64,000 bases of DNA from Laetmonice hystrix (taxonomy: Eukaryota). A program made the position numbers and the translations under genes. Numbering within the stretch: position 1 is the stretch's first letter; every line of letters starts with the position of its first letter. The stretch lies in assembly GCA_965235115.1 (NCBI GenBank), contig OZ249436.1, positions 21,826,001-21,890,000 on the forward strand, given 5' to 3'. The notes below the pieces were generated by a model that was not told the origin of the DNA, made no database searches, and saw nothing but the letters and a program-made list of their open reading frames with translations. Shown here piece after piece: positions 12,524-64,000 of the stretch.

Positions 12524-12595
12524 ACATAAATTATGGCGGTGAGAGAGCTCGGGGTTAGACCTAAACTAAAGCTACACCTACCAGGAAAAAAACAG

Positions 12596-13110: not shown

Positions 13111-13558
13111 GGTTATGATCCACTATTTATTTTCTTCTATAATTTAATGTAATGTTTTGGCCATTTTCAATGTTTAAAATAATTTCTGCGAATGTCTGCT
13201 TGGCATGGCAGGTTAGATATGCATGTTTCCGACAATAAAAACTCAATTTACGTATAGGTTGAATGATTAGATTTTATTTTATCGGAGCTTCTGTTACATG
13301 ACCCCAGGTGGCACCACCAAATCGACCAGAATACAGGCCTGTGATACATAACATATTGGCTAAGATTTTCCAAGGAAAGTTAAGCAGATATTCTCTAATA
13401 ATACACTGATATTATTGATCATATAGTGAACTTTTTCTCTGTGGTATTTGATGAGCACATTCAGGGGGGTTATATCCATTCTTGGCCCTAGATACATTCA
13501 CTCCATACCATTTTGAGGGACAACCAGCAGCCCATTGGCTAAATAGGGGGTCATGACC
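13111..13558 (+). repeat. LTDR copy 6
   Basis: Same sequence as 391-838. Confidence 0.92.
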
Positions 13559-15067: not shown

Positions 15068-15139
15068 ACATAAATTATGGCGGTGAGAGAGCTCGGGGTT
15101 AGACCTAAACTAAAGCTACACCTACCAGGAAAAAAACAG

Positions 15140-15556
15140 TTAGGGGGGCCTAGGGGTGTGTTCCCGGGTGCAAACTTGCTGTGCATTACAAACACGTCTT
15201 GCAGCATTCACTGGACGTGGCTCAAGGGTCAGGTGGGAGGGATTCACACACAGGGTTTGGTGGCACAAATGGCTAATTTCAACCCTATCTCCCTGAAGAT
15301 TGATGTTGGGGGGCATTAAAATCTGAACCGAAATGTGGTTAATATTTGGTTGTTGAATAAGGTAGTGTAATTGATAGGCTAATCTATGGACACGAAAATA
15401 AATCTTTTTAGAGGAACCTGGCAAACGAAGACTTAGAACCCCATAGTGTGAATCTCCCCACCTGGCCTCTGTCCACAGGAGGCACCCTCCACAAACGAGT
15501 CTACGTTTACTCAGTAACCTGCCCTGTACTTCTGTGACAGCCTGCCGCGGCTCCAT
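15140..15556 (-). CDS. His-Cys box endonuclease copy
   Basis: Identical to 2420-2836. Confidence 0.88.
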   Translation of the reverse strand: MEPRQAVTEVQGRLLSKRRLVCGGCLLWTEARWGDSHYGVLSLRLPGSSKKIYFRVHRLAYQLHYLIQQPNINHISVQILMPPNINLQGDRVEISHLCHQTLCVNPSHLTLEPRPVNAARRVCNAQQVCTREHTPRPP

Positions 15557-16289
15557 GATGCTTTGGTGGGTATGGGTGACACTCTCTGAATGTTAAGCCA
15601 TTCCAGATAGAGCTATACTTAGCGCTCTATCCTTCGACACCATTATTTTTTAGGTCTATGGCGTCAGAAGGATGTCTATGTTTTAGCATGGTTGGCGTTA
15701 GAGACATAGTTACTATTAAACACCAATAGGAAGTCTACGGAAGCGTATATCGGTCTCGCCCTACGCCTTGGCTATAACTTATGGTGCCTTATTTATCACG
15801 CTATGGTTACCAAGGCGCCTTAATAGTGCTTCTTAAGAAATAAGTCGCCTTAATTAAGGCGCCTTATAACACAAGGTGTCTTAATTAAGGCGCTTAATTA
15901 TAACAACGCGACAGTATGCCTTAATTTAGCGCCTTAAAAATTAAATTAGTACGCCTTAGTTATGGCGTCTTAGCTATCCCCTCCTGTGAAGTAAACTATC
16001 TTTAAGGCGCCTTACTAACACGCCTTAGTAAGAAATTGCCGTAACTAGCATGTCTTAAAAGTACAAGTCAAGTTAATTATGGGCATTATAAATATAAGCA
16101 AGCTAAATTAACAGTGATCACGTCAAATTTTATTTGATAACACCTTACGTTATAACGTAGGATGCTTTACATAGCATGTCTTGTCGGTATAAAATCGGAC
16201 ATGCAGCCGGTTCCGCGTGCAGCTGGGTTTTCCACTCATGTGACGTTGCTTCCTGTGCAGCCCAGATAGGTCAGCATAACATCTGATTA

Positions 16290-41782: not shown

Positions 41783-44700
41783 GTTGCATGGACTATACTC
41801 CGTTCTTGAATCCCTTATAGCGCTGGCATTTCAAGATTTTGGTGTCTCAGCATAGTCTGCTTGATGTGTGTCCGTGAATTGAGCGACCTAGATGGGCGTT
41901 CAGATAGAACCGGTGTGGGGTCAGTGTGGTTATAGGGGGAAGTGGTCAGGGGAACTTGGGAAGGGTAGATGTGGAAATAACCCCCTCCAGTCACGACCCT
42001 AACAACCACACGGCACTGAGAAATGAAACAAGCTACACACGAGACGCCGCTAGAAGACGGACTGATCAGTTTAAACGCTAACTACTGAAAGTCTCAGTCA
42101 CTTTGCTTGACAACAAAACGTGACCTTTGTCAAATGTGTTAAACTGAACCGAAATTAACAAATTAATCCTCGGCAGGAAATGCATAGGTCTAATATAGAG
42201 GAAGAACTTTTGTCGGTCGGCTTGATGGGAACTTTATACGTATATGGTATTGGTTATTTTAATAAGGTAGAGAATTTTTCTGGGTGAAATATCCTAGATC
42301 AGATATTCCAAGGATCTCCTCTCCAAGACCAAGATACTGGTTCACAATAAATGCCGATTCCCTCATTTATGTTCTGAATAGATATTAAAAAGGTACATCT
42401 CAAGTCTATACTATCGGAGGTTAAGTATAGACCGACTCTGAATGCTCATCAAGTTGATATACACGGACGCGACAAGCTCAATGCCTGGCTGAACCTTCAG
42501 AAAGATATTTTCGGCAACCAGGAGACGCACGTCACAGGGAATGCGTGCATTACACCGGGTGGAGCCACGGTGAATCGGGCCTTGTGGACGAGGGTTTGTC
42601 AAGCGCGACCGTCAGTGCTTCACTCGGGCGGGGTGGGGGAGGGACGACGTTTGGGAACTCTTTCGTTGACCGGTCGCATTCGGGTTTCACTCGGGCATAA
42701 TGACGTCATTTCTTCTTTTCGGATAATATTATACCCTGGGGTGATTTGAGTACCATGCGTCGAGATACATGGCGAGGTGGGCCTGTGTAGCGAGGCAGTG
42801 AGTGAACCGCCATATCCAATCGAGCCAGGTAGTAGTGCTGAAACATGCTCCTTTAGCTTCGTATGTGCAAATATAAATCTCTGGTATGAAGATAAACTAT
42901 ACCAAATTATGGGAAACAATTATGGCGGCCTCCTTCGACGGCAAGAACGTGACACATGCAATTGTTTATGCCACATTATCGCTCGGTTTGACGTTCGAAT
43001 TAAACTGGCTGTCTCACGAATTTCAAGTCATACGTAGCGTTTCCCACAAAATATGTCTGCATTGGGGGTCTTCAATATGATCCAAAACTCCCCTATCTTT
43101 CGATGTGAACTTCGGGTATTATGTAAAATACATTCAAAAAGTCGCCAAATCTTATTTCAGTCACTGAAAATGACCTACTTGGCTTCCGAGACCTCGGTAG
43201 TTGTTTTTTTTTCATATTCCTATGTACACTGCTATGCAAATTATTTGTACTACCGAAAATAGATTTCGAATCTACACCACAACAACACAACATTCAAACG
43301 ATTCGGCGACATGCCAAAACGGCGGCACTCATCGTGTTAGCGTGCACTCCAGCTAATATTTTTTCACTTTTCCACCACCAGGGATAATTTCACAGTTATC
43401 TACTCATAGGAGGTGTTAACCGAATCAATATGAAAAACATTCAGTGCCATAAAGTACGTCAGTGGTGAGGAGGTGAGCATAAATCTGAAGATTGGGCCTA
43501 TCCGGCGGGTGAGACGATCCCTTTAAGACCACAACAAGTAGAGACTGAGCTACTTGTAGGCCCGATCATAAACATGATAGGCCTGGGGAGACCGTTCGAG
43601 ACAAGGTCGCTCCTTTTTTACCTAATGAGACCTGGAAGCCAGTCTATTGAAGCAACACCAACGGGACTATCGTAGGAGTCATACATGTCGGCTAATTATA
43701 ACCCTTAGGTACCCTTACTTATGTGTGTAATTCATTGACTTATTGCCAATGATTCACACTGACCTTAAATGGCTGAACCTTCCCCTCGCTGGGGCAGGTT
43801 CGTCCAGCCTCTGGGGCAGTTACACCCCATTAAAATTTTCTAGATCCACAAGTCCTTATAATGTGAAAACAGTGTTCTTGCGTCCTGTTAGTCTGTCTTC
43901 AACGTGGCGACCTAGATATTTTTATGGTGTATGCCAGGCTGATGGTGTGACGTCATAACGTAGCAAACGATTCAATGTTCTGGTGCTGAGGAAAGATATG
44001 ACGTGCGATCGAACGTGCCCCGAGGGCGAACTATAGGCCTACTGCCGTGAAATGACAAAAGGAAGCAACTCCAACTTTCATCAAAATCGACTTGGGTGTA
44101 TTTCTGCTAAACATCCTTCTATAAAGCTATCAGTCACATGACAGAAGCAAGCATGTCCATCCAACTGCACTGTAGAGACAACTTGTTTTATAAATATCCA
44201 TTTCTCGAAACTTGAACTTTTGGACTTGCTTCCTTTTGTCATTTCACGGCAGTATAGCCCCGGTCACTATCGCAGTATTGCCCACTGGCTTTGAGAGGAG
44301 CACATTATTTCAGCTGCTGCCAAATACCGCAAACACTGTCATGATGGGCAGTCTCGGCTCAGTAGCCTATATCTACGATTCAATGCCAGCACCGGCGGAA
44401 CAGATAATATATTGGGGTTGGCCGAGGTTACTTTGAAATGACGGAGAGTTTCCTGGTTGGCCCTGTCGGTGCGCCTGTTGAACACCGCACCGTGGATAAC
44501 GTGTGTGCCCTCTGGTGGCAAATAGACCTGTGTCAAACCTAGCGCCCCCTGGAGTTTCGTGAACTACCGAAATCGCTTTTCGGATATCTTCGCATACAGG
44601 CTACAGACCGTAGTCGGGGGCGGGGAGGGGGCGACCCCCTCCTAAACAAGAAGAGGTCCATTTTTTCGAGAAAATATGAGTTAATGTTCTTTGTAAACAG

Positions 44701-44859
44701 GCCTAGCCTACTCGGGATTGAAAGATACACATTGTAAACCAGTAAATGAATAAATTAAGATTAGCCTACCGCGTTTCAGAAAGATGCCAGCATAGGCCTA
44801 CATAATTATGTTCTAGGCCTAGGCTACATGCTACAAGTATCAAAATTAATGTTTTTATA

Positions 44860-46704: not shown

Positions 46705-47570
46705 TATATCTTAGCTACACCTTGCTAATGAGCTTTGGCTGTATCCTTTTTACAACATTAAAAAAATAATTATTTAGGATAAATTACAAAGGGGCGTCTT
46801 GCCTCATATTGGAGGCAAGACGCCCCCTGGAGGCATCTTGCCCCACCCCCGGGGCCTATATCCAAACCATAAAAGCCTGGCAGATTCCCTCTTAATAATT
46901 TTGTTATTTTCGTTTCTTTTGAATGTGGGCCTTCCAACCTGTTATGTTGAATTTAAAGTTAGGGCCTAAGGTGCATGTCCAGACTGGGGGGGGGGGGGGA
47001 GCCCCAAAATTTTAAGGGGGGCCCCTGGCCCCTTTTCCTATTAAAAAGTTATTTTTCTATTTGGGGGGATCTAGATCTATAGCCCCCAGGACAAAAGCCA
47101 AAGTAGGCCAATTTCGGCACCCATATGCCTAGTAGGCCTAGATCAATTTGACACAACCAAAGCGTCTAAAACAAATAAATTTTTCAGGCGTTGTTCAAGG
47201 GAGAGTGCCCTTCAAGATAGTCTATTCTTACCATATTTTCTCATTTGATCTGGGCCATGGCGCAAATTGGGCACTTTTGCTGTGCAATCAGTCGGCCGGG
47301 GAGCGGTTTGACGCGTTGTCGCCAGACGGCCTTCAGTACAAGGCTAGGTGGCGCTGTGGTCACCGTCAGTAAAGCAAGGTATTGGTGACAACAGAAGTTC
47401 ATAAACGTATTTTGTTGTTTTATCATAACGAAGAAAAAGAAAAGTTCCTTCTTCTAAATCAGCATTAATTTTATTGTGAAAATAGCAAGCTTGGATACCT
47501 TATCTCAGAACTAAGGGCATTATCCTTTCAGTATTCCCAAATGAAAAAATGAAACCTTCGTAGATGAAAA

Positions 47571-47592
47571 TACACCATTCTTGATGAGTTAG
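47571..47592 (+). promoter_or_regulatory. Candidate snRNA proximal sequence element (PSE)
   Basis: acaccattct(t/g)gatgagttagg sits ~65-45 nt upstream of U5 and is conserved between both U5 variants while flanks diverge. Confidence 0.5.
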
Positions 47593-47635
47593 GTACTTGA
47601 ACCACTCGACACTTCCCCTCTTCAGTAAATCAGAG

Positions 47636-47757
47636 AACTCACGTTTCTCCTCATTCCACGTATAAATCTTTCGCCTTTTACTAAAGATTTCCGTGGGGAG
47701 GAACATTACAATGAGTCTATAGACGAATTTTTGCATCCCTGCTCTCAGAGCGGGGTA
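47636..47757 (+). ncRNA. U5: U5 spliceosomal snRNA (variant A)
   Basis: Invariant stem-loop 1 aaatctttcGCCTTTTACtaaagatttccgtgg, closing stem actca/tgagt, Sm site AATTTTTG and 3' hairpin ccctgctc-tca-gagcgggg. Ends are accurate to about +/-2 nt. Confidence 0.95.
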
Positions 47758-48277
47758 ATTAAAAAAGGAAGAATAGTCTCCTAACGCAAACTGATTCAGA
47801 CGACGAATGTTGTTTGTAAATAGGCCTAAATAAGATGGAAAAACAAAAATTGTAAAATAGTAAATGAAGAAATTAAGGTTACCGCAAGGAAATATATATT
47901 CCAGTGGTTTCAGAATTATTTTAGGAACATCTCCTCAAAGAGTGGGGAATTTAATGCAAAGGAACTGCATGTTCTGCCTGAAGGCGGCATTATGTACACG
48001 TTACAGGTATAAAATGTTTTCTTTTTATTATAAATGGTTATTCTGCCTGGAAAGAAACAAATAACACAAACACGTAATGGGCCCCCGGACGGGCGCGTTG
48101 GCAACAGAGGTAGACCTACCTGCCTGTTGTCCAAAAGATTACCTATAAATAAATTTTGCAGTTCTTGTTAAAAGGAGACTGCGCTTCAAGATACTCTATT
48201 CTTAGCATATTTTGTCATTTGATCTGGGCCATGGCACAAATTGGGCGCTTTTGCTGTGCAATAAGTCGGCCGGGGAG

Positions 48278-50286
48278 CAGTCTCGGTAACGCCAGACTCT
48301 CAGATAAGAGAGTCTGGGAGAGTTCCGATCTTTCATTGTTACCGCATGGTGGCGCGTCGAACGTTTAGGAACATAAGCGGCTCGAGGAGGCCAGAGAAAA
48401 ACAACCGACCTTTTCGCTTCACGAAAATTCGCTTGATAAAATTGCTCGACAAGACTACGTTTTACTAAGAAAAAGTCGTCATCATGTGTAAAATATGACT
48501 CTAGGCCCCCTATTTTGGCTATAGGCCTATAGGCCGACTGATTGCATTGTGCGGTGTAGAGCGAACACCTAGGCTGTGTGCATGTCAATTGTCCGTTGAA
48601 ATTTGAAAAATCCTTAATACTATCTTACTCAGTTCCTAAAGTTCTATGGTTCATACAATAAAGTTAATTGCTTATCAAACGACATATAGGCCCACTAGCC
48701 TATATGTAGGTGACCGATTAAACAGACGCTGTCTCAGGTTTGGAAATATGTGATCTATGATATAGGCCCCTATGCCGTGCTGGGCAGTGGGCGGGCGCTT
48801 ACTGGCTCACCCGCCGGGAGCGACCGGTGGGGGCCAGGGGCAGGGGAGCGAGGCGGCAGGCAGGCAAGACGCCAGAGTCCATGCAAGCAGGGATGATGCC
48901 GTCCTTGCAAAACGTCTCTAGACTAGAATATAAAACACACATTCCGCCCAATAGCGCTCCAATATTAGTTACGGGTTTTCCTATTAAACCGAGGCTGTCT
49001 CAGGCTTGAAAATATGGCAGACTCTGACTGCGTAAGGTCAGACTTGCAGGCTCAGCCCGGCGGGAGTGACCGAGCCCGAGGTGGCGGCCGGCGCTGCAGG
49101 CGGGGTAGGCCTACCGAAGTCTGTGCATGCATGCACTCGGAACACCGACGCTGCTTCTGATTGGCTGTTTCTAGGTCATATCCGGAGGCGAAGCAGGCCT
49201 CGGATGTATGAAGCGGCCATTTTCCCGTTTTTCGTGCAAAGTAGTGTAAAGCGGTCGCACATGAACACAAGAGTAAATAGTCGACCCCTACGCACAGGCA
49301 CATAGGCCTTGTTCAAATATAATTTCTCAGCATACCTATACCTCGAATTTTCTATCGTGGAGACAAAACAGTCTCTTCTTCACCTGGGAGGAAACCCAGA
49401 TATTCTGACTTTGTATAAAGTCCGACACTAGGGAGTTCTACATTTTCGGCACGGCGGCAGCGCGCGAGTTTGTTGTTTACATCCGGGTCAGTGGTCCCGA
49501 CCTAGCCACCCACCCACCCCACCCCCCAGCATGGCGACCTTCGTCGTACAGCCGAGATATGACGGAGTCAATCGTGGGTGAGCCGAGTGTGCATGCATGA
49601 TGCCGCCGTTGGAGGCTTGTATAAAACGTCGCGAGAACGCTAAAACCAGCCGTTGATCAGCATGAGCAGACTTCCGCTAATTTGACCAATCGGCTGCAAG
49701 ACGACCGGATGCAGAATTCCTGTAGCCTACTTTTTGAAAGCCGCTTATGTCTCGGAACAACGTCACAAACAGTAGATACAAAAGGTTATGATCCACTATT
49801 TATTTTCTTCTATAATTTAATGTAATGTTTTGGCCATTTTCAATGTTTAAAATAATTTCTGCGAATGTCTGCTTGGCATGGCAGGTTAGATATGCATGTT
49901 TCCGACAATAAAAACTCAATTTACGTATAGGTTGAATGATTAGATTTTATTTTATCGGAGCTTCTGTTACATGACCCCAGGTGGCACCACCAAATCGACC
50001 AGAATACAGGCCTGTGATACATAACATATTGGCTAAGATTTTCCAAGGAAAGTTAAGCAGATATTCTCTAATAATACACTGATATTATTGATCATAATAG
50101 TGAACTTTTTCTCTGTGGTATTTGATGAGCACATTCAGGGGGGTTATATCCATTCTTGGCCCTAGATACATTCACTCCATACCTTTTTGAGGGACAACCA
50201 GCAGCCCATTGGCTAAATAGGGGGTCATGACCAAAAGCTTCCAGACCCTCTGCTAGGGCCGCTGAGGGTCTGGATAATCGAGACTG
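48278..50286. mobile_element. Non-autonomous Academ(H)-like DNA transposon, 9-bp TSD
   Basis: gccggggag|cagtctcg...ccagac ... gtctgg...cgagactg|gccggggag. The empty site aagtcggccggggagcggtttg is seen at ~51331. YAG..CTR termini with a 9-bp TSD recall AcademH. Confidence 0.78.
49784..50232 (+). mobile_element. Solo LTDR of the KolobokP-like element, AAAA TSD
   Basis: aaaa|ggttatgatcc ... gtcatgacc|aaaa. It differs from 391-838 by one inserted A and one A>T change as seen by eye. Confidence 0.92.
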
Positions 50287-50633
50287 GCCGGGGAGCGGTT
50301 TGACGCGTTGTCGCCAGACGGCCTTCAGTGCACAAGGCTATAGGTGGCGCTGTGGTCACCGTAAGTAAACCAAGGTATATGCTGATAACAGAAGTACATA
50401 AACATATTAGCCTATGTTGTTTTATCATAACAAAGAAAAAGAAAAGTTCCTTCTTTTAAATCAGCATTTATTGTGAAAAATAGCAAGCTTGGATACCTTA
50501 TCTCAGACCTAAGGCATTTTCCAGTAAGGACCCCCCCCCCCCCCAAATGAAACATTCGTAGATGAAAAGACACCATTCTGGATGAGTTAGGTACTTGAAC
50601 CACTCGACACTTCCCCTGTTCAGTAAATCAGAG

Positions 50634-50755
50634 AACTCACGTTTCTCCTCATTCCACGTATAAATCTTTCGCCTTTTACTAAAGATTTCCGTGGGGAGGA
50701 ACATTACAATGAGTCTATAGACGAATTTTTGCATCCCTGCTCTAAGAGCGGGGTA
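50634..50755 (+). ncRNA. U5: U5 snRNA (variant B)
   Basis: As variant A, but the 3' hairpin loop reads taa instead of tca. Confidence 0.95.
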
Positions 50756-51679
50756 AATGAATAATGAAGAATAGTCTCCTAACGCAAACTGATTCAGACG
50801 AAGAATGTTGTTTATGAATAGGCCTAATTGGGATGGAAAATAAAAATTGTAACTAGTAAATGAAGAAAAAAAGATTACCGCAAGGAGATACATTCCAGTG
50901 CCTTTCAGAATTATTTGAGGAACATCTCCTCAAAGGGCTGGGTATTTAAAGCGAGGGAACTGAATGTTCTGCCTGAAGGCAGCATATAGGTACACGCTAC
51001 AGTTAATGTTTTCTTTTTATCATAAATATCTATTCTGCCTGAAAAAAACCCATCAAACACGCAATGTGCCCCCGGACGGGCGCGGTGACGACAGAGGTAG
51101 ACCTACCTTCCCGTTGTCCTAAAGATTACCTACACACAGAAGCCTTAGAGCGTCTGTACTCTTTTCATGGTCTCGATGTATGGATCAATTTGACAAAACC
51201 AATGCGTCTAAGACAAATAAATTTTGCAGTCGTTCTTCAAGGCAGACTGCCCTTCAAGATGCTCTATTCTTAGCATATTTTGTCATTTGATCTGGGCCAT
51301 GGCGTAAATTGGGCACTTTTGCTGTGCAATAAGTCGGCCGGGGAGCGGTTTGACACGTTGTCGCCAGACGGCCTTCAGTGCACAAGGCTAGGTGGCGCTG
51401 TGGTCACCGTAAGTAAACCAAGGTATTGCTGATAACAGAAGTTCATAAACATATTATGTTGTTTTATCATAACGAAGAAAAAGAAAAGTTCCTTCTTCTA
51501 AATCAGCATTAATTTTATTGTGAAAATAGCAAGCTTGGATACCTTATCTCAGAACTAAGGGCATTATCCTTTCAGTATTCCCAAATGAAAAAATGAAACC
51601 TTCGTAGATGAAAATACACCATTCTTGATGAGTTAGGTACTTGAACCACTCGACACTTCCCCTCTTCAGTAAATCAGAG

Positions 51680-51801
51680 AACTCACGTTTCTCCTCATTC
51701 CACGTATAAATCTTTCGCCTTTTACTAAAGATTTCCGTGGGGAGGAACATTACAATGAGTCTATAGACGAATTTTTGCATCCCTGCTCTCAGAGCGGGGT
51801 A
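51680..51801 (+). ncRNA. U5: U5 snRNA (variant A)
   Basis: Same as 47636-47757. Confidence 0.95.
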
Positions 51802-52321
51802 ATTAAAAAAGGAAGAATAGTCTCCTAACGCAAACTGATTCAGACGACGAATGTTGTTTGTAAATAGGCCTAAATAAGATGGAAAAACAAAAATTGTAAA
51901 ATAGTAAATGAAGAAATTAAGGTTACCGCAAGGAAATATATATTCCAGTGGTTTCAGAATTATTTTAGGAACATCTCCTCAAAGAGTGGGGAATTTAATG
52001 CAAAGGAACTGCATGTTCTGCCTGAAGGCGGCATTATGTACACGTTACAGGTATAAAATGTTTTCTTTTTATTATAAATGGTTATTCTGCCTGGAAAGAA
52101 ACAAATAACACAAACACGTAATGGGCCCCCGGACGGGCGCGTTGGCAACAGAGGTAGACCTACCTGCCTGTTGTCCAAAAGATTACCTATAAATAAATTT
52201 TGCAGTTCTTGTTAAAAGGAGACTGCGCTTCAAGATACTCTATTCTTAGCATATTTTGTCATTTGATCTGGGCCATGGCACAAATTGGGCGCTTTTGCTG
52301 TGCAATAAGTCGGCCGGGGAG

Positions 52322-54331
52322 CAGTCTCGGTAACGCCAGACTCTCAGATAAGAGAGTCTGGGAGAGTTCCGATCTTTCATTGTTACCGCATGGTGGCGCG
52401 TCGAACGTTTAGGAACATAAGCGGCTCGAGGAGGCCAGAGAAAAACAACCGACCTTTTCGCTTCACGAAAATTCGCTTGATAAAATTGCTCGACAAGACT
52501 ACGTTTTACTAAGAAAAAGTCGTCATCATGTGTAAAATATGACTCTAGGCCCCCTATTTTGGCTATAGGCCTATAGGCCGACTGATTGCATTGTGCGGTG
52601 TAGAGCGAACACCTAGGCTGTGTGCATGTCAATTGTCCGTTGAAATTTGAAAAATCCTTAATACTATCTTACTCAGTTCCTAAAGTTCTATGGTTCATAC
52701 AATAAAGTTAATTGCTTATCAAACGACATATAGGCCCACTAGCCTATATGTAGGTGACCGATTAAACAGACGCTGTCTCAGGTTTGGAAATATGTGATCT
52801 ATGATATAGGCCCCTATGCCGTGCTGGGCAGTGGGCGGGCGCTTACTGGCTCACCCGCCGGGAGCGACCGGTGGGGGCCAGGGGCAGGGGAGCGAGGCGG
52901 CAGGCAGGCAAGACGCCAGAGTCCATGCAAGCAGGGATGATGCCGTCCTTGCAAAACGTCTCTAGACTAGAATATAAAACACACATTCCGCCCAATAGCG
53001 CTCCAATATTAGTTACGGGTTTTCCTATTAAACCGAGGCTGTCTCAGGCTTGAAAATATGGCAGACTCTGACTGCGTAAGGTCAGACTTGCAGGCTCAGC
53101 CCGGCGGGAGTGACCGAGCCCGAGGTGGCGGCCGGCGCTGCAGGCGGGGTAGGCCTACCGAAGTCTGTGCATGCATGCACTCGGAACACCGACGCTGCTT
53201 CTGATTGGCTGTTTCTAGGTCATATCCGGAGGCGAAGCAGGCCTCGGATGTATGAAGCGGCCATTTTCCCGTTTTTCGTGCAAAGTAGTGTAAAGCGGTC
53301 GCACATGAACACAAGAGTAAATAGTCGACCCCTACGCACAGGCACATAGGCCTTGTTCAAATATAATTTCTCAGCATACCTATACCTCGAATTTTCTATC
53401 GTGGAGACAAAACAGTCTCTTCTTCACCTGGGAGGAAACCCAGATATTCTGACTTTGTATAAAGTCCGACACTAGGGAGTTCTACATTTTCGGCACGGCG
53501 GCAGCGCGCGAGTTTGTTGTTTACATCCGGGTCAGTGGTCCCGACCTAGCCACCCACCCACCCCACCCCCCAGCATGGCGACCTTCGTCGTACAGCCGAG
53601 ATATGACGGAGTCAATCGTGGGTGAGCCGAGTGTGCATGCATGATGCCGCCGTTGGAGGCTTGTATAAAACGTCGCGAGAACGCTAAAACCAGCCGTTGA
53701 TCAGCATGAGCAGACTTCCGCTAAATTTGACCAATCGGCTGCAAGACGACCGGATGCAGAATTCCTGTAGCCTACTTTTTGAAAGCCGCTTATGTCTCGG
53801 AACAACGTCACAAACAGTAGATACAAAAGGTTATGATCCACTATTTATTTTCTTCTATAATTTAATGTAATGTTTTGGCCATTTTCAATGTTTAAAATAA
53901 TTTCTGCGAATGTCTGCTTGGCATGGCAGGTTAGATATGCATGTTTCCGACAATAAAAACTCAATTTACGTATAGGTTGAATGATTAGATTTTATTTTAT
54001 CGGAGCTTCTGTTACATGACCCCAGGTGGCACCACCAAATCGACCAGAATACAGGCCTGTGATACATAACATATTGGCTAAGATTTTCCAAGGAAAGTTA
54101 AGCAGATATTCTCTAATAATACACTGATATTATTGATCATAATAGTGAACTTTTTCTCTGTGGTATTTGATGAGCACATTCAGGGGGGTTATATCCATTC
54201 TTGGCCCTAGATACATTCACTCCATACCTTTTTGAGGGACAACCAGCAGCCCATTGGCTAAATAGGGGGTCATGACCAAAAGCTTCCAGACCCTCTGCTA
54301 GGGCCGCTGAGGGTCTGGATAATCGAGACTG
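52322..54331. mobile_element. Academ-like element copy 2
   Basis: Same termini and TSD. Confidence 0.78.
53829..54277 (+). mobile_element. Solo LTDR copy 2
   Basis: Same as 49784-50232. Confidence 0.92.
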
Positions 54332-54678
54332 GCCGGGGAGCGGTTTGACGCGTTGTCGCCAGACGGCCTTCAGTGCACAAGGCTATAGGTGGCGCTGTGG
54401 TCACCGTAAGTAAACCAAGGTATATGCTGATAACAGAAGTACATAAACATATTAGCCTATGTTGTTTTATCATAACAAAGAAAAAGAAAAGTTCCTTCTT
54501 TTAAATCAGCATTTATTGTGAAAAATAGCAAGCTTGGATACCTTATCTCAGACCTAAGGCATTTTCCAGTAAGGACCCCCCCCCCCCCCAAATGAAACAT
54601 TCGTAGATGAAAAGACACCATTCTGGATGAGTTAGGTACTTGAACCACTCGACACTTCCCCTGTTCAGTAAATCAGAG

Positions 54679-54800
54679 AACTCACGTTTCTCCTCATTCC
54701 ACGTATAAATCTTTCGCCTTTTACTAAAGATTTCCGTGGGGAGGAACATTACAATGAGTCTATAGACGAATTTTTGCATCCCTGCTCTAAGAGCGGGGTA
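54679..54800 (+). ncRNA. U5: U5 snRNA (variant B)
   Basis: Same as 50634-50755. Confidence 0.95.
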
Positions 54801-55724
54801 AATGAATAATGAAGAATAGTCTCCTAACGCAAACTGATTCAGACGAAGAATGTTGTTTATGAATAGGCCTAATTGGGATGGAAAATAAAAATTGTAACTA
54901 GTAAATGAAGAAAAAAAGATTACCGCAAGGAGATACATTCCAGTGCCTTTCAGAATTATTTGAGGAACATCTCCTCAAAGGGCTGGGTATTTAAAGCGAG
55001 GGAACTGAATGTTCTGCCTGAAGGCAGCATATAGGTACACGCTACAGTTAATGTTTTCTTTTTATCATAAATATCTATTCTGCCTGAAAAAAACCCATCA
55101 AACACGCAATGTGCCCCCGGACGGGCGCGGTGACGACAGAGGTAGACCTACCTTCCCGTTGTCCTAAAGATTACCTACACACAGAAGCCTTAGAGCGTCT
55201 GTACTCTTTTCATGGTCTCGATGTATGGATCAATTTGACAAAACCAATGCGTCTAAGACAAATAAATTTTGCAGTCGTTCTTCAAGGCAGACTGCCCTTC
55301 AAGATGCTCTATTCTTAGCATATTTTGTCATTTGATCTGGGCCATGGCGTAAATTGGGCACTTTTGCTGTGCAATAAGTCGGCCGGGGAGCGGTTTGACA
55401 CGTTGTCGCCAGACGGCCTTCAGTGCACAAGGCTAGGTGGCGCTGTGGTCACCGTAAGTAAACCAAGGTATTGCTGATAACAGAAGTTCATAAACATATT
55501 ATGTTGTTTTATCATAACGAAGAAAAAGAAAAGTTCCTTCTTCTAAATCAGCATTAATTTTATTGTGAAAATAGCAAGCTTGGATACCTTATCTCAGAAC
55601 TAAGGGCATTATCCTTTCAGTATTCCCAAATGAAAAAATGAAACCTTCGTAGATGAAAATACACCATTCTTGATGAGTTAGGTACTTGAACCACTCGACA
55701 CTTCCCCTCTTCAGTAAATCAGAG

Positions 55725-55846
55725 AACTCACGTTTCTCCTCATTCCACGTATAAATCTTTCGCCTTTTACTAAAGATTTCCGTGGGGAGGAACATTACAA
55801 TGAGTCTATAGACGAATTTTTGCATCCCTGCTCTCAGAGCGGGGTA
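55725..55846 (+). ncRNA. U5: U5 snRNA (variant A)
   Basis: Same as 47636-47757. Confidence 0.95.
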
Positions 55847-56366
55847 ATTAAAAAAGGAAGAATAGTCTCCTAACGCAAACTGATTCAGACGACGAATGTT
55901 GTTTGTAAATAGGCCTAAATAAGATGGAAAAACAAAAATTGTAAAATAGTAAATGAAGAAATTAAGGTTACCGCAAGGAAATATATATTCCAGTGGTTTC
56001 AGAATTATTTTAGGAACATCTCCTCAAAGAGTGGGGAATTTAATGCAAAGGAACTGCATGTTCTGCCTGAAGGCGGCATTATGTACACGTTACAGGTATA
56101 AAATGTTTTCTTTTTATTATAAATGGTTATTCTGCCTGGAAAGAAACAAATAACACAAACACGTAATGGGCCCCCGGACGGGCGCGTTGGCAACAGAGGT
56201 AGACCTACCTGCCTGTTGTCCAAAAGATTACCTATAAATAAATTTTGCAGTTCTTGTTAAAAGGAGACTGCGCTTCAAGATACTCTATTCTTAGCATATT
56301 TTGTCATTTGATCTGGGCCATGGCACAAATTGGGCGCTTTTGCTGTGCAATAAGTCGGCCGGGGAG

Positions 56367-58371
56367 CAGTCTCGGTAACGCCAGACTCTCAGATAAGAGA
56401 GTCTGGGAGAGTTCCGATCTTTCATTGTTACCGCATGGTGGCGCGTCGAACGTTTAGGAACATAAGCGGCTCGAGGAGGCCAGAGAAAAACAACCGACCT
56501 TTTCGCTTCACGAAAATATGATAAATTGCTCGACAAGACTACGTTTTACTAAGAAAAAGTCGTCATCATGTGTAAAATATGACTCTAGGCCCCCTATTTT
56601 GGCTATAGGCCTATAGGCCGACTGATTGCATTGTGCGGTGTAGAGCGAACACCTAGGCTGTGTGCATGTCAATTGTCCGTTGAAATTTGAAAAATCCTTA
56701 ATACTATCTTACTCAGTTCCTAAAGTTCTATGGTTCATACAATAAAGTTAATTGCTTATCAAACGACATATAGGCCCACTAGCCTATATGTAGGTGACCG
56801 ATTAAACAGACGCTGTCTCAGGTTTGGAAATATGTGATCTATGATATAGGCCCCTATGCCGTGCTGGGCAGTGGGCGGGCGCTTACTGGCTCACCCGCCG
56901 GGAGCGACCGGTGGGGGCCAGGGGCAGGGGAGCGAGGCGGCAGGCAGGCAAGACGCCAGAGTCCATGCAAGCAGGGATGATGCCGTCCTTGCAAAACGTC
57001 TCTAGACTAGAATATAAAACACACATTCCGCCCAATAGCGCTCCAATATTAGTTACGGGTTTTCCTATTAAACCGAGGCTGTCTCAGGCTTGAAAATATG
57101 GCAGACTCTGACTGCGTAAGGTCAGACTTGCAGGCTCAGCCCGGCGGGAGTGACCGAGCCCGAGGTGGCGGCCGGCGCTGCAGGCGGGGTAGGCCTACCG
57201 AAGTCTGTGCATGCATGCACTCGGAACACCGACGCTGCTTCTGATTGGCTGTTTCTAGGTCATATCCGGAGGCGAAGCAGGCCTCGGATGTATGAAGCGG
57301 CCATTTTCCCGTTTTTCGTGCAAAGTAGTGTAAAGCGGTCGCACATGAACACAAGAGTAAATAGTCGACCCCTACGCACAGGCACATAGGCCTTGTTCAA
57401 ATATAATTTCTCAGCATACCTATACCTCGAATTTTCTATCGTGGAGACAAAACAGTCTCTTCTTCACCTGGGAGGAAACCCAGATATTCTGACTTTGTAT
57501 AAAGTCCGACACTAGGGAGTTCTACATTTTCGGCACGGCGGCAGCGCGCGAGTTTGTTGTTTACATCCGGGTCAGTGGTCCCGACCTAGCCACCCACCCA
57601 CCCCACCCCCCAGCATGGCGACCTTCGTCGTACAGCCGAGATATGACGGAGTCAATCGTGGGTGAGCCGAGTGTGCATGCATGATGCCGCCGTTGGAGGC
57701 TTGTATAAAACGTCGCGAGAACGCTAAAACCAGCCGTTGATCAGCATGAGCAGACTTCCGCTAAATTTGACCAATCGGCTGCAAGACGACCGGATGCAGA
57801 ATTCCTGTAGCCTACTTTTTGAAAGCCGCTTATGTCTCGGAACAACGTCACAAACAGTAGATACAAAAGGTTATGATCCACTATTTATTTTCTTCTATAA
57901 TTTAATGTAATGTTTTGGCCATTTTCAATGTTTAAAATAATTTCTGCGAATGTCTGCTTGGCATGGCAGGTTAGATATGCATGTTTCCGACAATAAAAAC
58001 TCAATTTACGTATAGGTTGAATGATTAGATTTTATTTTATCGGAGCTTCTGTTACATGACCCCAGGTGGCACCACCAAATCGACCAGAATACAGGCCTGT
58101 GATACATAACATATTGGCTAAGATTTTCCAAGGAAAGTTAAGCAGATATTCTCTAATAATACACTGATATTATTGATCATAATAGTGAACTTTTTCTCTG
58201 TGGTATTTGATGAGCACATTCAGGGGGGTTATATCCATTCTTGGCCCTAGATACATTCACTCCATACCTTTTTGAGGGACAACCAGCAGCCCATTGGCTA
58301 AATAGGGGGTCATGACCAAAAGCTTCCAGACCCTCTGCTAGGGCCGCTGAGGGTCTGGATAATCGAGACTG
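56367..58371. mobile_element. Academ-like element copy 3
   Basis: Same termini and TSD, with a net 5-bp deletion near 56517. Confidence 0.78.
57869..58317 (+). mobile_element. Solo LTDR copy 3
   Basis: Same as 49784-50232. Confidence 0.92.
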
Positions 58372-58715
58372 GCCGGGGAGCGGTTTGACGCGTTGTCGCC
58401 AGACGGCCTTCAGTGCACAAGGCTATAGGTGGCGCTGTGGTCACCGTAAGTAAACCAAGGTATATGCTGATAACAGAAGTACATAAACATATTAGCCTAT
58501 GTTGTTTTATCATAACAAAGAAAAAGAAAAGTTCCTTCTTTTAAATCAGCATTTATTGTGAAAAATAGCAAGCTTGGATACCTTATCTCAGACCTAAGGC
58601 ATTTTCCAGTAAGGACCCCCCCCCCCAAATGAAACATTCGTAGATGAAAAGACACCATTCTGGATGAGTTAGGTACTTGAACCACTCGACACTTCCCCTG
58701 TTCAGTAAATCAGAG

Positions 58716-58837
58716 AACTCACGTTTCTCCTCATTCCACGTATAAATCTTTCGCCTTTTACTAAAGATTTCCGTGGGGAGGAACATTACAATGAGTCTAT
58801 AGACGAATTTTTGCATCCCTGCTCTAAGAGCGGGGTA
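58716..58837 (+). ncRNA. U5: U5 snRNA (variant B)
   Basis: Same as 50634-50755. Confidence 0.95.
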
Positions 58838-59761
58838 AATGAATAATGAAGAATAGTCTCCTAACGCAAACTGATTCAGACGAAGAATGTTGTTTATGAA
58901 TAGGCCTAATTGGGATGGAAAATAAAAATTGTAACTAGTAAATGAAGAAAAAAAGATTACCGCAAGGAGATACATTCCAGTGCCTTTCAGAATTATTTGA
59001 GGAACATCTCCTCAAAGGGCTGGGTATTTAAAGCGAGGGAACTGAATGTTCTGCCTGAAGGCAGCATATAGGTACACGCTACAGTTAATGTTTTCTTTTT
59101 ATCATAAATATCTATTCTGCCTGAAAAAAACCCATCAAACACGCAATGTGCCCCCGGACGGGCGCGGTGACGACAGAGGTAGACCTACCTTCCCGTTGTC
59201 CTAAAGATTACCTACACACAGAAGCCTTAGAGCGTCTGTACTCTTTTCATGGTCTCGATGTATGGATCAATTTGACAAAACCAATGCGTCTAAGACAAAT
59301 AAATTTTGCAGTCGTTCTTCAAGGCAGACTGCCCTTCAAGATGCTCTATTCTTAGCATATTTTGTCATTTGATCTGGGCCATGGCGTAAATTGGGCACTT
59401 TTGCTGTGCAATAAGTCGGCCGGGGAGCGGTTTGACACGTTGTCGCCAGACGGCCTTCAGTGCACAAGGCTAGGTGGCGCTGTGGTCACCGTAAGTAAAC
59501 CAAGGTATTGCTGATAACAGAAGTTCATAAACATATTATGTTGTTTTATCATAACGAAGAAAAAGAAAAGTTCCTTCTTCTAAATCAGCATTAATTTTAT
59601 TGTGAAAATAGCAAGCTTGGATACCTTATCTCAGAACTAAGGGCATTATCCTTTCAGTATTCCCAAATGAAAAAATGAAACCTTCGTAGATGAAAATACA
59701 CCATTCTTGATGAGTTAGGTACTTGAACCACTCGACACTTCCCCTCTTCAGTAAATCAGAG

Positions 59762-59883
59762 AACTCACGTTTCTCCTCATTCCACGTATAAATCTTTCGC
59801 CTTTTACTAAAGATTTCCGTGGGGAGGAACATTACAATGAGTCTATAGACGAATTTTTGCATCCCTGCTCTCAGAGCGGGGTA
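59762..59883 (+). ncRNA. U5: U5 snRNA (variant A)
   Basis: Same as 47636-47757. Confidence 0.95.
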
Positions 59884-60403
59884 ATTAAAAAAGGAAGAAT
59901 AGTCTCCTAACGCAAACTGATTCAGACGACGAATGTTGTTTGTAAATAGGCCTAAATAAGATGGAAAAACAAAAATTGTAAAATAGTAAATGAAGAAATT
60001 AAGGTTACCGCAAGGAAATATATATTCCAGTGGTTTCAGAATTATTTTAGGAACATCTCCTCAAAGAGTGGGGAATTTAATGCAAAGGAACTGCATGTTC
60101 TGCCTGAAGGCGGCATTATGTACACGTTACAGGTATAAAATGTTTTCTTTTTATTATAAATGGTTATTCTGCCTGGAAAGAAACAAATAACACAAACACG
60201 TAATGGGCCCCCGGACGGGCGCGTTGGCAACAGAGGTAGACCTACCTGCCTGTTGTCCAAAAGATTACCTATAAATAAATTTTGCAGTTCTTGTTAAAAG
60301 GAGACTGCGCTTCAAGATACTCTATTCTTAGCATATTTTGTCATTTGATCTGGGCCATGGCACAAATTGGGCGCTTTTGCTGTGCAATAAGTCGGCCGGG
60401 GAG

Positions 60404-62413
60404 CAGTCTCGGTAACGCCAGACTCTCAGATAAGAGAGTCTGGGAGAGTTCCGATCTTTCATTGTTACCGCATGGTGGCGCGTCGAACGTTTAGGAACAT
60501 AAGCGGCTCGAGGAGGCCAGAGAAAAACAACCGACCTTTTCGCTTCACGAAAATTCGCTTGATAAAATTGCTCGACAAGACTACGTTTTACTAAGAAAAA
60601 GTCGTCATCATGTGTAAAATATGACTCTAGGCCCCCTATTTTGGCTATAGGCCTATAGGCCGACTGATTGCATTGTGCGGTGTAGAGCGAACACCTAGGC
60701 TGTGTGCATGTCAATTGTCCGTTGAAATTTGAAAAATCCTTAATACTATCTTACTCAGTTCCTAAAGTTCTATGGTTCATACAATAAAGTTAATTGCTTA
60801 TCAAACGACATATAGGCCCACTAGCCTATATGTAGGTGACCGATTAAACAGACGCTGTCTCAGGTTTGGAAATATGTGATCTATGATATAGGCCCCTATG
60901 CCGTGCTGGGCAGTGGGCGGGCGCTTACTGGCTCACCCGCCGGGAGCGACCGGTGGGGGCCAGGGGCAGGGGAGCGAGGCGGCAGGCAGGCAAGACGCCA
61001 GAGTCCATGCAAGCAGGGATGATGCCGTCCTTGCAAAACGTCTCTAGACTAGAATATAAAACACACATTCCGCCCAATAGCGCTCCAATATTAGTTACGG
61101 GTTTTCCTATTAAACCGAGGCTGTCTCAGGCTTGAAAATATGGCAGACTCTGACTGCGTAAGGTCAGACTTGCAGGCTCAGCCCGGCGGGAGTGACCGAG
61201 CCCGAGGTGGCGGCCGGCGCTGCAGGCGGGGTAGGCCTACCGAAGTCTGTGCATGCATGCACTCGGAACACCGACGCTGCTTCTGATTGGCTGTTTCTAG
61301 GTCATATCCGGAGGCGAAGCAGGCCTCGGATGTATGAAGCGGCCATTTTCCCGTTTTTCGTGCAAAGTAGTGTAAAGCGGTCGCACATGAACACAAGAGT
61401 AAATAGTCGACCCCTACGCACAGGCACATAGGCCTTGTTCAAATATAATTTCTCAGCATACCTATACCTCGAATTTTCTATCGTGGAGACAAAACAGTCT
61501 CTTCTTCACCTGGGAGGAAACCCAGATATTCTGACTTTGTATAAAGTCCGACACTAGGGAGTTCTACATTTTCGGCACGGCGGCAGCGCGCGAGTTTGTT
61601 GTTTACATCCGGGTCAGTGGTCCCGACCTAGCCACCCACCCACCCCACCCCCCAGCATGGCGACCTTCGTCGTACAGCCGAGATATGACGGAGTCAATCG
61701 TGGGTGAGCCGAGTGTGCATGCATGATGCCGCCGTTGGAGGCTTGTATAAAACGTCGCGAGAACGCTAAAACCAGCCGTTGATCAGCATGAGCAGACTTC
61801 CGCTAAATTTGACCAATCGGCTGCAAGACGACCGGATGCAGAATTCCTGTAGCCTACTTTTTGAAAGCCGCTTATGTCTCGGAACAACGTCACAAACAGT
61901 AGATACAAAAGGTTATGATCCACTATTTATTTTCTTCTATAATTTAATGTAATGTTTTGGCCATTTTCAATGTTTAAAATAATTTCTGCGAATGTCTGCT
62001 TGGCATGGCAGGTTAGATATGCATGTTTCCGACAATAAAAACTCAATTTACGTATAGGTTGAATGATTAGATTTTATTTTATCGGAGCTTCTGTTACATG
62101 ACCCCAGGTGGCACCACCAAATCGACCAGAATACAGGCCTGTGATACATAACATATTGGCTAAGATTTTCCAAGGAAAGTTAAGCAGATATTCTCTAATA
62201 ATACACTGATATTATTGATCATAATAGTGAACTTTTTCTCTGTGGTATTTGATAAGCACATTCAGGGGGGTTATATCCATTCTTGGCCCTAGATACATTC
62301 ACTCCATACCTTTTTGAGGGACAACCAGCAGCCCATTGGCTAAATAGGGGGTCATGACCAAAAGCTTCCAGACCCTCTGCTAGGGCCGCTGAGGGTCTGG
62401 ATAATCGAGACTG
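60404..62413. mobile_element. Academ-like element copy 4
   Basis: Same termini and TSD. Confidence 0.78.
61911..62359 (+). mobile_element. Solo LTDR copy 4
   Basis: Same as 49784-50232, with a private G>A at 62254. Confidence 0.92.
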
Positions 62414-62757
62414 GCCGGGGAGCGGTTTGACGCGTTGTCGCCAGACGGCCTTCAGTGCACAAGGCTATAGGTGGCGCTGTGGTCACCGTAAGTAAACCAA
62501 GGTATATGCTGATAACAGAAGTACATAAACATATTAGCCTATGTTGTTTTATCATAACAAAGAAAAAGAAAAGTTCCTTCTTTTAAATCAGCATTTATTG
62601 TGAAAAATAGCAAGCTTGGATACCTTATCTCAGACCTAAGGCATTTTCCAGTAAGGACCCCCCCCCCCAAATGAAACATTCGTAGATGAAAAGACACCAT
62701 TCTGGATGAGTTAGGTACTTGAACCACTCGACACTTCCCCTGTTCAGTAAATCAGAG

Positions 62758-62879
62758 AACTCACGTTTCTCCTCATTCCACGTATAAATCTTTCGCCTTT
62801 TACTAAAGATTTCCGTGGGGAGGAACATTACAATGAGTCTATAGACGAATTTTTGCATCCCTGCTCTAAGAGCGGGGTA
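62758..62879 (+). ncRNA. U5: U5 snRNA (variant B)
   Basis: Same as 50634-50755. Confidence 0.95.
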
Positions 62880-63803
62880 AATGAATAATGAAGAATAGTC
62901 TCCTAACGCAAACTGATTCAGACGAAGAATGTTGTTTATGAATAGGCCTAATTGGGATGGAAAATAAAAATTGTAACTAGTAAATGAAGAAAAAAAGATT
63001 ACCGCAAGGAGATACATTCCAGTGCCTTTCAGAATTATTTGAGGAACATCTCCTCAAAGGGCTGGGTATTTAAAGCGAGGGAACTGAATGTTCTGCCTGA
63101 AGGCAGCATATAGGTACACGCTACAGTTAATGTTTTCTTTTTATCATAAATATCTATTCTGCCTGAAAAAAACCCATCAAACACGCAATGTGCCCCCGGA
63201 CGGGCGCGGTGACGACAGAGGTAGACCTACCTTCCCGTTGTCCTAAAGATTACCTACACACAGAAGCCTTAGAGCGTCTGTACTCTTTTCATGGTCTCGA
63301 TGTATGGATCAATTTGACAAAACCAATGCGTCTAAGACAAATAAATTTTGCAGTCGTTCTTCAAGGCAGACTGCCCTTCAAGATGCTCTATTCTTAGCAT
63401 ATTTTGTCATTTGATCTGGGCCATGGCGTAAATTGGGCACTTTTGCTGTGCAATAAGTCGGCCGGGGAGCGGTTTGACACGTTGTCGCCAGACGGCCTTC
63501 AGTGCACAAGGCTAGGTGGCGCTGTGGTCACCGTAAGTAAACCAAGGTATTGCTGATAACAGAAGTTCATAAACATATTATGTTGTTTTATCATAACGAA
63601 GAAAAAGAAAAGTTCCTTCTTCTAAATCAGCATTAATTTTATTGTGAAAATAGCAAGCTTGGATACCTTATCTCAGAACTAAGGGCATTATCCTTTCAGT
63701 ATTCCCAAATGAAAAAATGAAACCTTCGTAGATGAAAATACACCATTCTTGATGAGTTAGGTACTTGAACCACTCGACACTTCCCCTCTTCAGTAAATCA
63801 GAG

Positions 63804-63925
63804 AACTCACGTTTCTCCTCATTCCACGTATAAATCTTTCGCCTTTTACTAAAGATTTCCGTGGGGAGGAACATTACAATGAGTCTATAGACGAATTTTT
63901 GCATCCCTGCTCTCAGAGCGGGGTA
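63804..63925 (+). ncRNA. U5: U5 snRNA (variant A)
   Basis: Same as 47636-47757. Confidence 0.95.
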
Positions 63926-64000
63926 ATTAAAAAAGGAAGAATAGTCTCCTAACGCAAACTGATTCAGACGACGAATGTTGTTTGTAAATAGGCCTAAATA

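Follow-up and report, generated by a model that had tools for sequence, protein, structure and literature searches.

Nested transposon sequences in the two-gene repeat unit of a U5 snRNA array of Laetmonice hystrix

Introduction

The closest precedent for the locus described here is the primate RNU2 tandem array, in which every unit harbors a solo LTR and Alus. According to excerpts of two sources (PMC3795722; bioRxiv 10.1101/2025.11.08.687349) and to Pavelitz et al. 1995 as cited there, this array is built from a 6.1-kb unit. As for DNA transposons, the available part of the KolobokP description (PMC9587614) gives the LTDR a length of about 450 or 660 bp and RR...YY ends, together with TIRs of 11 to 18 bp and target-site duplications (TSDs) of 3 to 5 bp. 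The TSDs of AcademH measure 9 to 10 bp and those of AcademX 3 to 4 bp (PMC10045372, excerpts), and for non-autonomous elements the Repbase rule combines the same TSD length with an alignment of the termini over positions 1-11 (PMC4455052).

Here, we describe a U5 snRNA gene array found in a stretch of 64,000 nucleotides from Laetmonice hystrix, which was analyzed as a whole and is called the window below.

Results

A search of the window with the Rfam model RF00020 returned nine U5 matches, all on the + strand and all full length (model positions 1-117). All nine copies scored 91.7 bits, compared to a gathering score of 40, and loop 1 and the Sm site of U5 aligned to the model in the six copies that were inspected as alignments. 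The U5 identity proposed in the original prediction is thus confirmed. The genes alternate between two sequence types, A and B, which differ at only 1 of 122 positions, a single base in the loop of the 3' hairpin (Table 1). This is in contrast to the ~1.05-kb monomers as a whole: leaving out the insert of B, the alignment of the two has mismatches at 74 of 948 bases (7.8%) and 16 gaps, in agreement with the earlier claim of a ~1-kb repeat of diverged A and B types. The differences are markedly depleted in the gene (1/122) compared to the flanks (73/826; p 0.0005), a pattern with which selection and gene conversion would both be compatible. We also looked for a conserved promoter block, but the 60 bp upstream of U5 (2/60) did not differ significantly from the other flanks (71/766; p 0.16).

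The two monomers form a unit of ~4.04 kb with two U5 genes, and the window contains four whole units followed by an incomplete fifth one, starting at positions 47142, 51184, 55229, 59266, and 63308 (periods of 4042, 4045, 4037, and 4042). The array has been seen in one assembly, and its right end lies beyond the window. A word search of sequencing runs gave six runs from three studies: four of a single sample, which may be the source, contain 0.21 to 0.66 of the words, and two marine metagenomes contain 0.12 and 0.08, too small a share to be of use; no RNA run was among them, and none of the six enters the evidence given here. Pairwise alignment of the four whole units revealed 0 to 2 substitutions and 1 to 4 indel events per ~3.77 kb, as anticipated by the claim of a nearly invariant 4-kb unit. 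The four whole units can nevertheless be told apart, as no combination of variants recurs; unit 4, for instance, has a substitution and unit 3 a complex indel. Of the four variants that separate the units, two are differences in homopolymer length. Transposon DNA accounts for about half of each unit. Both inserts occur in all four whole units, the outermost included, and none of these is an insert-free A+B dimer. Only four of the nine U5 genes, however, are in a monomer that carries the inserts.

The larger insert is a non-autonomous DNA transposon that measures 2.0 kb with the LTDR nested in it and 1,556 bp without. In all four whole units, its right end is located at the same place, 347 bp upstream of the type-B U5 gene. 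Both ends consist of perfect 8-bp TIRs with a hairpin just inside each, and a 9-mer flanks the insert on both sides in every B (4/4) and is present once at the empty site in every A (e.g., 47295 and 51337). No transposase or helicase could be found in it, the longest stop-free stretch being 115 codons. Short TIRs with subterminal hairpins are typical of AcademH, which was reportedly described by Kojima in 2020, and 9-bp TSDs are also produced by MuDR-type elements. Based on its TSD and end structure, the element likely belongs to AcademH, although membership is unproven. Of the Academ-like element that the original prediction had placed ~350 bp upstream of each B gene, the position and the 9-bp TSD therefore stand, while the name is carried by the TSD and ends of a copy lacking a transposase.

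There are no other copies of the element in the window: BLAST with a word size of 7 gave three matches of 15 to 21 bp left of the array, and an 8-base match to the element end at 44349 was taken as chance, the remainder of the end motif being absent. Scanning metagenome contigs for the element ends yielded at least 119 loci, most of them apparently chance matches. A candidate partner end was present for 7 of the 117 scanned ends examined, and the 9-bp duplications of these seven paired loci had 0 to 1 mismatches in three cases, 3 in two, and 5 in two; the three good paired loci share one assembly prefix and were counted as one source. Elements sharing the end structure and flanked by 9-bp duplications lie at other sites, namely at L037, L028, and L043. 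Among 10 ORFs from the end-scan loci, five matched unrelated host-like families or DUF6589, a domain that we take to be linked with Academ, and five matched nothing. At L065, a similar end is followed by broken ORFs with one sub-threshold DUF6589 match (24.7 bits versus 27; Atlas 0.94), and no helicase was seen at this locus. Rfam matches were found in none of 20 loci selected among the at least 119. There is thus no sign that this class of elements targets snRNA genes, and targeted insertion at such genes was rejected as unsupported.

A solo LTDR sits 54 bp inside the right end of the larger element, with 15 of 18 matching TIR positions and the 4-bp sequence AAAA on both sides in all four copies; no empty site of the LTDR was seen. 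It belongs to the same LTDR family as the six identical LTDRs of the multimer at the left end of the window, from which it differs by one substitution and a one-base indel (two substitutions in the fourth unit). Its affiliation to KolobokP, as originally predicted, is supported by the length (448 or 449 bp), the GG...CC ends, and the TIRs of the LTDR and by the 4-bp repeat flanking the solo copy. No further solo LTDR was found between 15595 and 47141, and the exact 11-base left end of the LTDR was absent from four supplementary files of PMC9587614.

The multimer itself is composed of identical copies, with no differences in 15,594 bp. It displays the (LTDR-INT)n organization of KolobokP, in which a His-Me finger ORF and the transposase are encoded on opposite strands. 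The middle of the transposase, including most of the PF20700 domain, is missing; as no intact DDD/E transposase is present, the multimer fits a non-autonomous family rather than an autonomous KolobokP. Twelve longer transposase relatives were found, of which nine contain PF20700 and none has an informative name. No close relatives of the His-Me ORF were identified among six candidates. The nuclease might be defective, because its frame ends just before the Cys-containing tail, which lies in another frame.

The array opens with a divergent segment, the initial 273 bp of its first A monomer, which was overlooked in the original prediction. All differences between this monomer and the later As are confined to this segment: compared to the second A, 18 of 240 comparable sites differ up to 47412 and 0 of 716 beyond (Fisher p 1e-11). 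Over 131 bp of the edge, the first and second A differ at 11 positions, the second A and B at 11, and the first A and B at 14, and over the next ~110 bp, the second A is nearer to B (2 differences) than to the first A (7 differences). The edge piece, which differs from A and B by 8 to 11%, is thus not a sister of the internal A. That the differences stop at 273 bp suggests that two distinct monomers, one on each side of B, took part in an unequal crossover, and we infer that the crossover point lies just right of 47412. Both the array boundary and the switch point fall within U5-monomer sequence; the LTDR is more than 2.3 kb away, and the end of the larger element ~0.9 kb. Since the array edge does not coincide with an LTDR end, we rejected an LTDR-bounded composite transposition of the U5 block. 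Left of the array, no decayed U5 gene was detected between 38000 and 47140 at E<=5. A decayed piece resembling the downstream flank of the monomer, devoid of a U5 gene, is located 2.3 kb away.

Table 1. Positions of the features in the window
Feature	Position	Strand	Basis or remark
Non-autonomous KolobokP (LTDR-INT)n multimer	1..15594	+	2,544-bp period
Multimer LTDR	391..838; also 2935, 5479, 8023, 10567, 13111	+	TACA on both sides
Transposase remnant	1557..2341	+	Matches residues 2-77 and 494-673 of full-length relative P0002
His-Me finger nuclease ORF	2420..2929	-	PF05551, E 2e-13; convergent with transposase remnant
Decayed piece like U5 monomer downstream flank	44683..44808	+	nhmmer E 4.5e-11
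Tandem array of two-monomer unit, ~4.04 kb	47142..64000	+	Continues beyond window end
Divergent left edge of first A monomer	47142..47412	+	23 variant columns versus later As
U5 snRNA gene, type A	47635..47756; also 51679, 55724, 59761, 63803	+	RF00020, 91.7 bits
Left 9-bp target-site duplication	48269..48277; right copy 50287-50295	+	Single copy at empty site in A
Non-autonomous DNA transposon, AcademH-like	48278-50286; copies 52322-54331, 56367-58371, 60404-62413	.	TSD, end structure
KolobokP solo LTDR, 449 bp	49784-50232; copies 53829-54277, 57869-58317, 61911-62359	+	GG...CC ends, TIRs
U5 snRNA gene, type B	50633..50754; also 54678, 58715, 62757	+	RF00020, 91.7 bits
Spacer	51133..51214	+	At B-to-A junction; missing (~80 bp) at A-to-B junction

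Discussion

We favor, with a probability of about 0.65, the view that an older, unhomogenized U5 cluster recently underwent a local higher-order expansion, in which the transposons were passengers, copied because they lie between U5 genes. The starting cluster comprised at least three monomers of ~1.05 kb, with flanks 8 to 11% diverged and nearly identical U5 genes. The larger transposon, with its 9-bp TSD, then entered monomer B, leaving the U5 gene and the near upstream sequence intact, and the nested LTDR may have lodged in it at this locus or arrived pre-nested. Subsequently, the monomers on either side of B would have recombined out of register, with the crossover resolved just right of 47412/51456. 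This would have joined the left part of one monomer to the right part of its partner and duplicated a 4.04-kb A+B block. Further unequal exchanges between near-identical blocks would have produced at least four and a bit copies. Both inserts and the two LTDR differences are common to the four whole units, indicating the order divergence, then insertion, then amplification, as had been predicted; all units go back to a single one in which both inserts were already in place. The proposed recency holds relative to the A/B split: the LTDR shows 1 substitution in 448 (95% Poisson range of 0.006 to 1.2%) versus 7.8% between A and B, which supports a comparatively young expansion.

The original prediction had the transposons hitchhiking on the concerted evolution of the array. 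Their role as passengers is retained in our preferred reading, but concerted evolution is not. Near-identity, as in RNU2-type arrays, is found between units, whereas it does not extend across all monomers, adjacent ones staying 8 to 11% apart. Homogeneity belongs to the dimer, which has a chimeric edge, so that a recent local expansion suffices and ongoing homogenization is not needed. Likewise, "fixed" is too strong a word for inserts seen in one assembly, in less than half of the gene-bearing monomers and in an array that runs out of the window.

What counts against the transposons being passengers is that the only other multi-kilobase near-identical array of the window also carries the LTDR once per unit. 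Passive carriage leaves this presence in both arrays unexplained, and the arrival of the LTDR and the expansion are both very recent. In addition, the partner monomer that the crossover predicts is not seen, the right end of the array lying beyond the window. The LTDR could instead be a transposon-delivered recombination hotspot, cut in trans by the KolobokP His-Me nuclease, with out-of-register repair amplifying U5; after one chance duplication, the array would formally be (LTDR-X)n, with the host U5 genes as X. Such a role would agree with monomers that were already ~8% diverged before the LTDR arrived and expanded only afterward, and with the induced-unequal-crossover model for KolobokP multimers, which Kojima and Bao label speculative (PMC9587614, excerpts). 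We consider it unlikely, however: the junction of the first duplication is in U5-monomer sequence and not at the LTDR, the neighboring multimer has no transposase core and perhaps no functional nuclease, and cleavage of the LTDR by the nuclease is not demonstrated in the available part of PMC9587614. Moreover, the coincidence of two arrays is weak, since any homogeneous array will be young when it is observed and insertions of an active family are young as well.

Somewhat more doubtful still is an old U5 array that evolved concertedly, with the A+B dimer as its unit, and was swept by one unit bearing both inserts, which then became fixed. RNU2 behaves in this way (PMC3795722; bioRxiv 10.1101/2025.11.08.687349; both in part), and a sweep would account for the few substitutions between units; the decayed flank piece suggests older turnover, and the sharp edge would be equally expected. 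Nevertheless, the edge piece is no nearer to A than to B, unlike the leftover expected from an old A/B array, A and B are not homogenized with each other outside the gene, and insert-free dimers are missing from the four whole units. We regard it as improbable that the copy number of the unit, itself real, is inflated or wrong in the assembly. Near-identical 4-kb repeats are indeed difficult to assemble, half of the variants separating the units are homopolymer lengths, and the neighboring multimer shows zero differences. Yet the four whole units are each marked by a distinct combination of variants, and the location of the window, over 21 Mb into a single piece, suggests a long-read assembly.

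Under the preferred reading of a recent local expansion, the array is a datable snapshot of an snRNA cluster changing its repeat unit, in which nested inserts and a chimeric edge reveal the order of events within one stretch of DNA; RNU2 is much older and harder to read. If the LTDR drove the process, the array would amount to an (LTDR-host genes)n multimer, the first natural setting in which induced unequal crossover could be tested on host cargo. It would then put the published KolobokP-nuclease model to the test and show that a DNA transposon has increased the dosage of a housekeeping RNA gene.

Compared to described families, the B-monomer transposon resembles AcademH in its 9-bp TSD, short TIRs, and subterminal hairpins and differs from it in having neither transposase nor helicase. 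The similarities to KolobokP, as far as the available part of Kojima and Bao 2022 (PMC9587614) goes, include an LTDR of ~450 bp with RR...YY ends, short imperfect TIRs and a 4-bp TSD, solo copies, multimers, an INT bounded by the same 4-mer, a His-Me ORF opposite the transposase, and a 2,544-bp non-autonomous monomer within the reported 1.7 to 3.3 kb. Unlike in that description, the solo LTDR is here repeated within a host-gene tandem unit; a term search of the paper returned nothing on snRNA, rRNA, or host genes.

With RNU2, to the extent covered by the excerpts, the U5 array shares a homogeneous snRNA unit rich in transposon sequence (63% in RNU2 versus ~50%), and each unit contains a single solo terminal repeat that may help to maintain the array. 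In both cases, related elements are located nearby, and the flank contains decayed pieces of the unit. The two differ in their genes (U2 there, U5 here) and in their inserts, a retroviral LTR and Alus in one and nested DNA transposons in the other. Furthermore, the U5 array has a two-gene unit with inserts in one monomer only, and its expansion appears very young, with the chimeric edge still visible, whereas the cross-species evidence of concerted evolution comes from RNU2. Transposon DNA inside a homogeneous snRNA unit is a known principle, to which the U5 array adds a new example.

U5 genes alternate between two monomer types

Screening the window with the Rfam U5 model recovered nine full-length U5 genes, all on the plus strand and each scoring 91.7 bits (gathering score, 40), in agreement with the original prediction of a U5 array. 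The genes are of two types, which alternate at spacings of about 3.0 kb and 1.05 kb and differ at 1 of 122 bases. Together, the corresponding monomers, A and B, form a 4.04-kb repeat unit, of which the window holds four whole copies and 693 bp of a fifth, and the array continues past the right end. The expected divergence between A and B was also found: without the insert carried by B, 74 of 948 aligned bases differed, with 16 gaps. An 82-bp spacer was present at the B-to-A junction and absent from the A-to-B junction. Compared pairwise, the four whole units showed 0 to 2 substitutions and 1 to 4 indel events over about 3.77 kb, as anticipated for a composite unit of about 4 kb repeated with few differences.

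Between A and B, the U5 gene was more uniform than its flanks (1/122 versus 73/826 differing sites; P = 0.0005), which is compatible with selection or short gene conversion. Stronger conservation of the 60 bp upstream of U5 relative to the rest of the flank was not significant (P = 0.16). A decayed match to the downstream flank of the monomer (E = 4.5e-11), with no U5 gene near it, hints at older turnover of the cluster; alternatively, it could be a dispersed repeat.

The window also contains three MITE-like elements of about 850 bp with inverted ends of about 200 bp, two of which are 92% alike and in opposite orientation; the two adjoining the U5 array have their terminal 10 to 12 bases in common. 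Two minisatellites were observed as well, and so were two long ORFs of host-like character: one is rich in threonine and mucin-like, the other rich in proline and tyrosine. Neither ORF gave a Pfam match.

Positions of the features in the window
Feature	Position	Remarks
U5 genes	47635-63924	
Repeat unit starts	47142, 51184, 55229, 59266, 63308	
Larger insert	48278-50286	also at equivalent positions in next three units
Nested insert	49784-50232	449 bp; GG...CC ends, 15/18 matches between the two ends, AAAA on both flanks
KolobokP multimer	1-15594	2,544-bp period
End of His-Me frame	2340-2460	
Nested inverted repeats	15735-20118	610 bp at 97%; 1,159 bp at 92%
Minisatellite	21882-23255	127-bp period
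Minisatellite	30453-32000	199/311-bp period; includes inverted segment
MITE-like element	24880-25744	
MITE-like elements adjoining array	44856-45698, 45872-46711	
Long ORFs	34938-37918	minus strand
Decayed U5 flank	44683-44808	

Each B monomer carries two nested transposons

The larger insert is a non-autonomous DNA transposon with perfect 8-bp terminal inverted repeats (TIRs) and a hairpin just internal to each. A 9-bp sequence flanks it on both sides in each B and is single in each A, so that the A monomer represents a directly visible empty site. Minus the nested piece, the insert measures 1,556 bp; none of its stop-free stretches exceeds 115 codons, and the window contains no further copy. 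We take its termini to resemble those of the AcademH group. "AcademH-like" is a fair label, membership itself being putative: of the Academ-like element originally predicted, the insertion in B and its 9-bp duplication stood, and the assignment to Academ is likely but short of proof.

Metagenome contigs were scanned with a 17-base pattern from the insert's ends, yielding at least 119 loci, mostly apparent chance matches; 7 of the 117 ends examined had a candidate partner end. Three loci sharing one assembly prefix (L037, L028, and L043) are elements of 366 to 668 bp whose ends share this structure and whose 9-bp duplication has 0 or 1 mismatches, indicating that ends of this type mark a mobile class that makes 9-bp duplications at other sites too. 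In the remaining four candidates, the duplication had 3 or 5 mismatches. Together with L030, the three loci form a set of 366 to 797 bp with TIR-plus-hairpin ends and 9-bp duplications under one assembly prefix. Another locus, L065 (170-4023, minus strand), has an end resembling that of the insert, and after it come broken ORFs, one of them with a sub-threshold DUF6589 match; the locus is possibly a decayed autonomous relative. Duplications of 9 to 10 bp for AcademH and 3 to 4 bp for AcademX are given in the available text of PMC10045372.

Aligned with the direct repeats of the KolobokP multimer, an (LTDR-INT)n array in which all six are identical, the nested insert shows a single substitution and a one-base indel, confirming the predicted solo LTDR nearly identical to that array. 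The multimer itself shows zero differences across 15,594 bp. Its minus strand encodes a His-Me finger protein (PF05551, E = 2e-13). Of a transposase, the two ends are left and the middle is gone; full-length relatives carry PF20700. Multimer and nested piece match a non-autonomous KolobokP multimer and a solo LTDR as defined in the available text of PMC9587614. A stretch of 54 bp separates the LTDR from the right end of the larger element; the hairpin and TIR of that end are intact, so the LTDR may have reached the U5 locus already nested.

In all copies, the His-Me frame stops just past a G run, with a short Cys-containing tail in another frame; the nuclease may be truncated, or the consensus may contain an error. 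The multimer ends 60 bp before the expected next LTDR start, exceeding the 1- to 5-bp loss of reported LTDR excision footprints. Directly to its right, nested long inverted repeats resemble a foldback element within another.

Probable origin of the array by unequal crossover

Both inserts and the two LTDR differences are common to all four whole units, indicating descent from one unit already carrying both inserts. LTDR divergence is 1 substitution in 448 bp (0.2%; 95% range, 0.006 to 1.2%) versus 7.8% between A and B, so the expansion is young relative to the A/B split only. In these relative terms, the predicted recent amplification after the LTDR insertion holds.

The first A monomer differs from later ones at 23 columns, all in its first 273 bp: 18 of 240 comparable sites differ before position 47412 and none of 716 after it. 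Over the first 131 shared bases, this divergent edge piece and internal A differ at 11 sites, internal A and B at 11, and the edge piece and B at 14; over the next 110 bp or so, internal A shows 2 differences from B and 7 from the first A. Judged from these sites, the edge piece and internal A are not sisters. We suggest that three old monomers stood in a row and that the outer two recombined out of register. This crossover would have produced a chimeric internal A and duplicated the block holding B, extra copies arising from later unequal exchanges. A point against it is that the partner monomer it calls for on the right would lie beyond the window. Our best reading (probability, about 0.65) is that unequal crossover recently expanded a U5 block of two genes and that the transposons came along as passengers. 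The hitchhiking on concerted evolution first proposed is supported in part: the transposons are probably passengers, and the pre-expansion cluster, with A and B this far apart outside the gene, had not been homogenized beyond the U5 gene itself.

The sharp edge could also result from a sweep through an older, long-concerted dimer array, which we regard as quite unlikely. The LTDR might instead have driven the expansion, since both near-identical multi-kilobase arrays in the window have it once per unit, and this would fit a model, termed speculative by its authors in the available text of PMC9587614, in which the His-Me nuclease cuts LTDRs and induces unequal crossover. However, more than 2.3 kb separates the LTDR from the first junction, and the nearby multimer is without a transposase core and has a perhaps shortened nuclease frame, making this role unlikely. 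Inflation of the copy number in the assembly is very improbable: two of the four variants separating units are homopolymer lengths, but a substitution marks unit 4 and a complex indel unit 3.

Comparison with known snRNA arrays

In our literature search, thin for subscription journals, neither nested DNA transposons in a U5 unit nor a KolobokP LTDR within a host-gene array turned up. According to the available text of PMC3795722, 63% of the human RNU2 unit consists of interspersed repeats; these include five Alus and an LTR for which a part in the origin or upkeep of the array is suspected. In the accessible portion of 10.1101/2025.11.08.687349, each unit has a single LTR, related proviruses adjoin the array, and the flank contains decayed unit pieces; unequal exchange is a candidate mechanism there. 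In fish, tandem snRNA repeats including U5 are cited in the available text of PMC8167085. Given these RNU2 and fish precedents, snRNA arrays with transposons in their homogeneous unit are already known as a kind.
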